This document shows positions 2,389 through 2,838 of a DNA stretch of 3,003 nt, in pieces (position 1 is the first letter of the stretch; every line of letters starts with the position of its first letter). Below the pieces are notes generated by a model. It was not told the origin of the DNA, did no database searches, and was given only the letters and a program-made list of their open reading frames with translations. The translations under genes were made by a program, and so were the position numbers. Source of the stretch: Escherichia coli (lineage in GTDB: Bacteria > Pseudomonadota > Gammaproteobacteria > Enterobacterales > Enterobacteriaceae); NCBI RefSeq assembly GCF_003334385.1, contig NZ_QOWN01000096.1, one strand, 5' to 3'.

Positions 2389-2838
2389 TTAAAGCCCACC
2401 TATTTTTTGCGACAGCAAAGGGATTTCTTTTTTAATCCAATCTATCATTTCATTTTTTTCAAAACACACGTTAATGCCATTCACACTTCCACACTCACCA
2501 AAAGCATCAAAATAAATTTCACATTTATTATTACCTTTCGAAATGATACTAACCCCCCATCTTATATTGTTATATTTTTCTTTTCTGAAATACTTCATTT
2601 GCAATAAATCAATTATCTTACCAGCATAAAGATCGCTAATTTCATTCACCACCACTTTATATCTGTATATTTCATTAAGACCTTCCTTGCTAAGCGGAAC
2701 TAACGTGGTAACATACGATGGAAGATTAATTATCTCTATCGTTTTCACGCTATCTATTCCACACAATTCATTCACTCGCTCCATCCCCAATACCGAACCA
2801 GAAAATAGAGACAATAAAACCATCAAATATTTCATCAT
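2389..2838 (-). CDS. Hypothetical small exported protein (149 aa) with predicted Sec signal peptide and four Cys in the mature part; AT-rich, likely horizontally acquired
   Basis: This is the ATG-initiated part of the track ORF 2389..2931. Tandem ATG ATG at 2838..2833 is preceded by GAGG (2845..2848, 6-nt spacer); the stop is TAA at 2391..2389. Protein: MMKYLMVLLSLFSGSVLGMERVNELCGIDSVKTIEIINLPSYVTTLVPLSKEGLNEIYRYKVVVNEISDLYAGKIIDLLQMKYFRKEKYNNIRWGVSIISKGNNKCEIYFDAFGECGSVNGINVCFEKNEMIDWIKKEIPLLSQKIGGL. The N-terminus has a basic residue followed by a 14-residue hydrophobic stretch and a plausible V-L-G cleavage site. A 150-codon ORF in ~30% GC DNA is very unlikely by chance. I do not recognise a homologous family. 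Confidence 0.7.
   Translation of the reverse strand: MMKYLMVLLSLFSGSVLGMERVNELCGIDSVKTIEIINLPSYVTTLVPLSKEGLNEIYRYKVVVNEISDLYAGKIIDLLQMKYFRKEKYNNIRWGVSIISKGNNKCEIYFDAFGECGSVNGINVCFEKNEMIDWIKKEIPLLSQKIGGL

Follow-up and report, generated by a model that had tools for sequence, protein, structure and literature searches.

What is the function of a short, AT-rich gene that stands directly before an rhs gene, and to which of its neighbours does it belong? The question is raised by a stretch of 3,003 nucleotides from the Escherichia coli chromosome (contig NZ_QOWN01000096.1 of assembly GCF_003334385.1), here called the window, in which an open reading frame (ORF) of 149 codons precedes an rhs gene on the same strand. 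The protein has a RefSeq entry, WP_001372445.1, which starts at the identical ATG and carries the name 'RHS element protein dsORF-h1'. An earlier reading of the letters of the window (the original prediction) had considered an immunity protein that acts in the periplasm against a toxin encoded upstream, an orphan immunity gene, a new secreted accessory factor for Rhs, or an unrelated insertion. We consider it likely that the ORF is the exported immunity gene (dsORF/RhsI) of an Rhs toxin with an M91/Tox-HopH1 domain and that the toxin itself was removed here via the insertion sequence (IS) ISEc1, so that the first two options fit jointly, given the intact loci, the 1,019 genomes in which gene and toxin occur together, and the loss of the toxin through ISEc1 described below.

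The ORF occupies positions 2838..2389 on the minus strand and consists of an ATG start, 149 codons in total, and a TAA at 2391..2389. All that the original prediction had read directly from the sequence was borne out. It had put the G+C content at about 30% against about 65% for rhs; the ORF has 32.4–32.9%, with 32.7% at third codon positions (GC3), and the rhs part of the window has 63.9% with a GC3 of 75.2%. The good ribosome-binding site is GTGAGG at 2845..2850 on the minus strand, of which GAGG (2848..2845) lies 6 nt before the ATG, and the four cysteines are residues 26, 106, 116 and 125. The N-terminus, described as Sec-type, consists of MMK and a 15-residue hydrophobic run ending in VLG, and has the shape of a Sec signal peptide according to hydropathy and the −3/−1 rule, a heuristic that predicts a signal peptide at residues 1–18 (2838..2785, minus strand). 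A scan of the window with Rfam returned no RNA families.

The preceding neighbour of the gene is visible in loci that have remained intact. In E. coli O104:H4 (locus L002), the RhsE site between yncH and pptA contains vgrG, a gene for a 1,413-residue Rhs protein and, after a gap of 11 bp, the ORF. In two further loci (L003 and L004), copies of the ORF that are about 90% identical in DNA to that of the window follow rhs1 by 12 and 11 bp and stand 76 bp before a second rhs. In all three loci, the ORF is located directly downstream of an rhs toxin tip, on the same strand and at a distance of 11–12 bp, and no ISEc1 lies upstream of it. The original prediction had found it unusual that such a gene should fill the slot before rhs that adaptor genes usually take; this framing has to be given up, as the ORF goes with the rhs before it, and the rhs after it is not its partner.

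The association holds across the species. Among 5,426 complete E. coli genomes, with presence defined as at least 80% coverage, the ORF was found as a single copy in 1,064, the 520-bp toxin domain in 1,019, and the ISEc1/remnant junction as in the window in 43. About 96% of the ORF-carrying genomes have a complete toxin domain too, and the window form, in which the toxin has been lost, makes up about 4%; the 1,019 and the 43 genomes together cover nearly all ORF copies. The toxin domain has a G+C content of 35.6% and the rhs core 64.3%, the ORF being about as AT-rich as the toxin domain. The AT-rich toxin tip and the immunity gene are one module set on a GC-rich rhs core, and, because the low G+C content is common to tip and ORF, the seemingly foreign composition is the normal signature of an Rhs tip plus its immunity gene. 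The ORF is a real gene, far beyond a chance reading frame, since it is kept in about 1,064 E. coli genomes, shows a ratio of nonsynonymous to synonymous substitution rates (dN/dS) of 0.35–0.43 between two E. coli allele groups, has homologues down to about 20% identity, and is modelled with a predicted local distance difference test score (pLDDT) of 94.

The fate of the toxin gene in the window can be read from the DNA upstream of the ORF. The window is 100% identical to strain 300709 (locus L001) and to many pig and human isolates. Positions 2899..2850 on the minus strand hold a 3' remnant of the toxin gene, namely its last 15 codons (VDGPLQTMKITGTPE) and a TAG at 2852..2850. In an alignment with the translation of L002, this remnant is identical to the end of the 1,413-residue Rhs protein of O104:H4; homology to that protein stops upstream of 2899, where the end of ISEc1 starts, and a megablast comparison of the toxin probe with the window-form locus aligned only the last ~50 nt. 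The ribosome-binding site of the ORF overlaps the stop codon of the remnant, and the same layout is found behind the intact toxin gene in L002, an arrangement typical of translationally coupled toxin–immunity pairs. The right end of ISEc1, an ISAs1-family element or 'H-repeat', extends over 2898..3003 (minus strand), as assigned from the annotation of L001 and the right-end alignment, and runs off the window; it includes the 3' end of the transposase gene at 3003..2909 (minus strand, annotation of L001). In L001, the ISEc1 element region whose right end abuts the toxin remnant (window 2898–3003) spans 10959–12107.

The IS terminus, ...CTTGCCCTGG(G), lies at ~2900, with an ambiguous overlap of 2–3 nt (GGG) where the remnant abuts. 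Four ISAs1-family right ends could be aligned up to ...CTTGCCCTGG and then diverged, which places the terminus at ~2900 and the ORF outside the element; other ISEc1/ISAs1 copies lack the ORF and are followed by unrelated DNA. A longer, TTG-started ORF (2931..2389) was rejected because its upstream part is composed of the IS end and the toxin remnant. The 43 complete genomes with the ISEc1/remnant junction include many from pigs (enterotoxigenic E. coli) and from humans, and 25 window-form genomes among the matches listed are 100% identical over the 704-nt query. This identity and the shared junction suggest a single recent event that spread within a lineage. The window form is a minority form in which ISEc1 has probably replaced the toxin gene and left the ORF behind as an orphan immunity gene.

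The partner toxin domain makes up the last ~160 residues of WP_000014727.1, beyond the Rhs DPxGL motif, and carries the sequence HEFAH. Across 19 toxin homologues, the pattern QSPALGLGHExxHA ... EExRVI ... AAKTL is conserved; in the alignment of this family, the Pfam profile Peptidase_M91 (PF14891) finds 11 of the 19 sequences at E ≤ 0.001 and every one of them at E ≤ 0.1, and the homologues from Hafnia bear the name 'M91 family zinc metallopeptidase'. Judged by the HExxH motif and the profile matches, the partner toxin is a predicted zinc metallopeptidase domain of the Peptidase_M91/Tox-HopH1 (NleD-like) type. The toxin-family profile had no matches among all PDB sequences at E ≤ 10, nor did the single sequence. 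A standalone M91-like protein of 177 residues (P0038; L005–L007) has the best score with the toxin profile (E 1e-66). Its loci contain no Rhs part and no immunity-like neighbour; the gene is flanked by one for a Peptidase_S9 protein and by a convergent gene. The protein is perhaps an enzyme of another kind, and its context indicates that the M91-like peptidase family is not confined to toxin/immunity cassettes.

Does the pairing extend beyond E. coli? Profile hidden Markov models (HMMs) of the toxin and immunity families were run over the six-frame ORFs of 24 fetched loci, the contexts of remote homologues having been gathered by 12 single-protein look-ups, not by a systematic neighbourhood census. 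Beside the immunity homologues of these 24 loci (L005–L007 aside), every ORF with a match to the toxin HMM stood immediately upstream and in the same orientation. This upstream ORF encoded a full toxin domain not only in L002–L004 but also in a Salmonella houtenae-type locus (L008/9) and in L010, each with a 4-nt overlap, and in a second E. coli pair behind a 1,410-residue Rhs protein (L018/19). Only a 3' toxin remnant was present in an environmental Rhs array (L012-14) and in L016, and a partial toxin match was cut by the contig end in L015. No toxin was found nearby in L020, L021/22 and L023/24, and L011 and L017 were uninformative, their contig ends being too close. The full-toxin pairs fall into four independent types: the E. 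coli h1 pair with its variant, the Salmonella houtenae pair, L010, and L018/19. Compared with the h1 pair, the toxin and immunity proteins of four other pairs are 72 and 84%, 36 and 40%, 46 and 33%, and 44 and 33% identical, respectively. By these sequence identities, toxin and immunity protein appear to diverge together, and the ORF shows both the composition and the co-divergence that characterise an Rhs immunity gene. The layout of the window, a toxin remnant followed by an orphan, recurs in unrelated bacteria (L012-14, L016). The original prediction had asked whether homologues recur next to rhs, vgrG or PAAR genes elsewhere; the distant homologues follow M91 toxins and do not precede rhs genes.

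Two of the toxin-free loci deserve a description of their own. In a Salmonella enterica contig (L020, 1–2825), a family member of 52% identity is an orphan behind a different Rhs, the tip of which is Gly/Ala-rich and hydrophobic and looks membrane-active; this Rhs is followed by a small ORF of its own, which has hydrophobic, membrane-like segments and forms a separate toxin/immunity pair with it, and neither an M91 toxin nor a remnant of one was detected in this locus. In a JGI metagenome contig (L021, 3600–7900), the family member P0055 is found among about 12 same-strand small ORFs of 45–167 residues that have no Pfam matches and no Rhs gene near them, and this region may be an island of immunity genes.

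The original prediction could not place the protein in a family. This stood for the curated collections: dsORF-h1 had no Pfam match at E ≤ 10, none of the 56 family members had one at E ≤ 0.001, and NCBIfam, PADLOC and PHROGs gave nothing significant for the ORF or the remote members. It did not stand altogether, as a RefSeq name and remote homologues exist. A word-indexed protein search found relatives from E. coli and Shigella only. An exhaustive HMM search of 1.84 billion representatives gave 65 matches, of which about 55 are full-length, 130–190 residues long and 20–50% identical to dsORF-h1. Conserved throughout the family are P22, L36, D73-x-R75-W76-G, G96 and G99 (mature-protein numbering). 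According to hydropathy and a lipobox pattern, an N-terminal hydrophobic signal is present in 42 of the 56 members (~75%), at least four of which have a lipobox. Cys26 and Cys106 are found together throughout the enterobacterial clade, and the remote members have cysteines at other positions; such clade-specific cysteines plausibly fit an exported protein with lineage-specific disulfides. A metagenomic protein of 117 residues (P0017) is nearly the same as dsORF-h1 in its C-terminal half and differs in its N-terminal half, which lacks a signal peptide; recombination, an assembly error or a cytoplasmic form of the protein could explain it.

With the 9-sequence alignment from E. coli and Shigella, AlphaFold2 gave an unusable model (pLDDT 42), and the 56-sequence alignment was therefore used. 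The resulting model of dsORF-h1 is a compact α/β domain with a pLDDT of 94.3 and a predicted template modelling score (pTM) of 0.88. Foldseek found nothing in the PDB at E ≤ 0.001 for this model, and a PDB sequence search with the immunity-family profile gave nothing meaningful. In AFDB50, the matches were uncharacterised proteins and 'lipoproteins' only, among them 'DsORF-h1' of E. coli and E. marmotae and uncharacterised Salmonella homologues. The original prediction had thought of lysozyme-inhibitor or known immunity folds; the structure search of the model brought up no characterised relative, and the fold searches revealed no likeness to Ivy, PliC/MliC, Tsi/Tai or the known folds of immunity proteins of type VI secretion systems (T6SS). 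We see an even chance that dsORF-h1 and its ~55 remote relatives constitute a hitherto unassigned immunity family of Tox-HopH1/Peptidase_M91 polymorphic toxins.

In Rhs, contact-dependent inhibition (CDI) and T6SS systems alike, the immunity gene is regularly the small ORF that immediately follows the toxin domain. Rhs dsORF/RhsI genes directly follow the variable toxin tip, are AT-rich like the tip, vary with it, and are often orphaned together with displaced tips and H-repeats; dsORF-h1 shares all of these properties. Most characterised RhsI proteins are cytoplasmic and directed against nucleases or other cytoplasm-acting toxins, and dsORF-h1 differs from them in its predicted export signal. 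The name dsORF-h1 is said to go back to Wang, Zhao and Hill in J Bacteriol 1998. Literature searches under 'dsORF-h1' and 'dsORF' found nothing, and the 'RhsH' of PMC7216683 is a different gene.

One of the closest described systems is that of Salmonella Dublin, in which the PAAR-Rhs-Peptidase_M91 protein SED_RS06335 of Salmonella pathogenicity island 19 (SPI-19) and the downstream-encoded SED_RS06340 behave as an effector/immunity pair in competition: deletion of the pair sensitises the strain 2.4-fold to its parent, and deletion of the effector alone does not (PMC8867033). Like the h1 pair, it combines an Rhs protein with a C-terminal M91 HExxH motif and a small AT-rich ORF encoding an N-terminal hydrophobic segment. 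A parallel in the mode of action is provided by the Tpe/Tpi family, in which a T6SS-delivered HExxH metallopeptidase is accompanied by a small, exported partner encoded downstream. In Pseudomonas aeruginosa, the C-terminal metallopeptidase of VgrG2b (VgrG2b C-ter) exerts its toxicity in the periplasm alone. It is neutralised there by PA0261, a DsbA-dependent protein with cysteines that requires its signal peptide; the family includes Tpe1/Tpi1 of Acinetobacter baylyi, and some of its relatives rely on a lipobox or a membrane anchor instead of a signal peptide to reach the periplasm (PMC6899460). VgrG2b C-ter is a DUF4157 domain carried on VgrG (PDB 6H56), in contrast to the M91-type domain on Rhs considered here. 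The lack of any PDB match for the toxin profile at E ≤ 10 implies that VgrG2b C-ter is not a detectable sequence relative of the partner toxin, and no homology between the two was found; it is an analogue only.

Tox-HopH1 itself was described as a T6SS-linked zincin HExxH domain at the C-terminus of RHS-repeat proteins, and no immunity family was given for it (Zhang et al. 2012, PMC3482391). By contrast with the Rhs toxin considered here, the type III effectors NleD and HopH1 act on eukaryotic host proteins and come without an immunity gene. The target of Rhs-M91/Tox-HopH1 effectors is disputed among surveys, none of which mentions the exported family described here (PMC12994826 supplementary file 3; PMC8867033; bioRxiv 10.1101/2024.03.05.583533).

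Together, these data suggest the following scenario. The ancestral cassette would have been vgrG, an rhs gene encoding the core and the M91 toxin, the immunity gene, and a second rhs. A Sec signal peptide would direct newly made dsORF-h1 to the periplasm, where the protein would fold into a compact α/β domain that, in members of the enterobacterial clade, is probably stabilised by a disulfide. There it would bind and block the metallopeptidase domain delivered by sister cells through type VI secretion. From its position and co-occurrence with the toxin, we infer that the product of the gene neutralises the toxin; expression of the gene and a periplasmic site of action are presumed. An exported immunity protein would in turn imply that the toxin hits a target in the cell envelope from the periplasmic side. 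In the window lineage, ISEc1, or recombination at ISEc1, would have deleted all of the toxin gene but its last 15 codons and left the immunity gene intact. The orphan, now placed before the next rhs of the tandem array, might still protect against toxin-carrying neighbours.

Several observations weigh against this scenario. The signal-peptide calls were made with hydropathy and the −3/−1 rule and not with SignalP, and 14 of the 56 family members have no signal, several of these being clearly truncated gene calls and others perhaps genuine. The single E. coli toxin sequence matches Pfam Peptidase_M91 weakly (independent E-value 0.0025–0.004). The remote homologues in L020, L021/22 and L023/24 have no toxin nearby, so the family could have other roles, or these copies could be orphans. 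The supplementary table of a 2026 Salmonella survey lists Tox-HopH1 as 'Anti-eukaryotic'. SED_RS06340 is reported as a protein of 110 residues with one transmembrane segment and no domain, which by description is unlike dsORF-h1 (PMC8867033), and its C-terminus, as deduced from a published primer, does not resemble the dsORF-h1 family. The literature searched contained no experimental report on the dsORF-h1 protein. In the window-identical strain, the T6SS cluster and the downstream rhs are degraded, and the expression of an orphan behind ISEc1 is open to doubt.

The last point leads to an alternative that we regard as improbable, namely that the ORF here is an inert relic of a recent ISEc1 event, intact by chance, unexpressed and of no benefit. 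The 25 identical genomes among the matches listed and the 43 shared junctions suggest that the event was indeed recent, the T6SS cluster has a short tssM, partial tssJ and tagH, and an IS1 insertion, the downstream rhs is frameshifted, and a sequence scan revealed no promoter-like site in the interval from the IS end to the ATG. However, the reading frame, the ribosome-binding site and the signal peptide are intact, only two nonsynonymous and two synonymous changes separate the window-form ORF from the toxin-linked allele, and the ISEc1 transposase gene, which has the same orientation, could supply incoming transcription; orphan immunity genes are, moreover, commonly retained against neighbours. 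We give an equally low chance to the ORF encoding an exported partner of the M91 toxin that is not its inhibitor, such as a periplasmic factor for maturation, activation or targeting, or another component that is secreted. The tight linkage to M91 toxin domains shows a partnership and not the direction of its effect, and no immunity protein or protease inhibitor that has been characterised shares the fold. Against this stand the regular occurrence of immunity genes at this position in Rhs, CDI and T6SS systems and the fact that the gene outlives the toxin, as in the 43 genomes, in L012-14 and L016, where toxin remnants persist, and in L020, where it is an orphan; such survival fits an immunity gene, whereas an activator would be useless without its toxin.

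Two further explanations, both touched on in the original prediction, are far less probable still and are rejected here. One of them would make the ORF an accessory, adaptor or chaperone-like factor co-transcribed with the downstream rhs. The two genes lie on the same strand, and the AT-rich spacer from the ORF stop to the rhs ATG measures exactly the predicted 76 nt (2388..2313, minus strand) and is conserved, with one substitution and otherwise identical sequence across four aligned loci; as had also been predicted, a scan of 2200–3003 found no terminator-like sites. Neither dsORF-h1 (E ≤ 10) nor the 56 family members (E ≤ 0.001) match the Pfam adaptor/chaperone profiles DUF4123, DUF1795/Eag and DUF2169, or any other Pfam family, and the predicted signal peptide is ill-suited to a cytoplasmic loading chaperone. 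Furthermore, O104:H4 keeps the ORF even though its downstream rhs is reduced to the first bases, and the remote homologues follow M91 toxins with no rhs genes after them, which speaks against a new secreted accessory factor as well. The other explanation, an unrelated insertion or a passenger gene of ISEc1, is the most remote of the four. It would account for a G+C content far from that of rhs and for the IS end 60 nt upstream, but low G+C content is common to the toxin domain and usual for Rhs tips, the ISEc1 boundary lies upstream of the ORF at ~2900, where the four right ends diverge, and other ISEc1/ISAs1 copies lack the ORF. In addition, 1,019 genomes have the ORF together with a complete toxin, and intact loci have no ISEc1 upstream. 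We therefore retain the immunity gene of a deleted M91 toxin as the best account of the ORF.

The remainder of the window is taken up by the 5' part of the next tandem rhs (2312..1, minus strand), which comprises 770 open codons with a PAAR-like N-terminus and an Rhs core and runs off the window. In the identical genome, it is annotated as 'RHS repeat-associated core domain-containing protein, frameshifted'. In the same locus (L001), the first rhs has no N-terminus, and the T6SS cluster beside the Rhs array (1–7000) looks degraded, with a short tssM, tssJ and tagH as partial pseudogenes, and IS1A adjoining tssB. Strain 300709 may keep immunity genes though the weapon has been lost. In O104:H4 (L002, 9451–9710), the immunity gene is still followed by the spacer and by the opening bases of the second rhs (ATGAGCGGAAAACCGGCG...), and a defective transposase gene of the ISAs1 family has taken the place of the remainder of this rhs. 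Comparison of O104:H4 with the window indicates that H-repeat elements cut the array at different points in different lineages.

In summary, the name of the protein was already available in RefSeq, and the locus has the classical architecture of an Rhs element; the novelty is modest and lies in an unannotated, structurally uncharacterised and exported family that is linked to M91/HopH1 toxin domains. The result is chiefly a correction, as the ORF would be not a new Rhs accessory factor but the antidote gene of a deleted neighbouring toxin. Loss of a toxin by an insertion sequence is a common outcome in Rhs loci, and short windows can hide the true partner of a gene. That the exported partner is conserved speaks for an antibacterial role of this toxin class in the periplasm. 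If the assignment is true, Rhs-delivered NleD-like metallopeptidases would be antibacterial and act in the periplasm on an envelope target, different from the anti-eukaryotic role or the cytoplasmic site assigned to them in some recent surveys. The family offers a direct handle on where the widespread type VI M91 metallopeptidase toxins act and whether they are antibacterial, and its orphan copies may explain which E. coli resist the ~19% of sequenced strains that carry the toxin.

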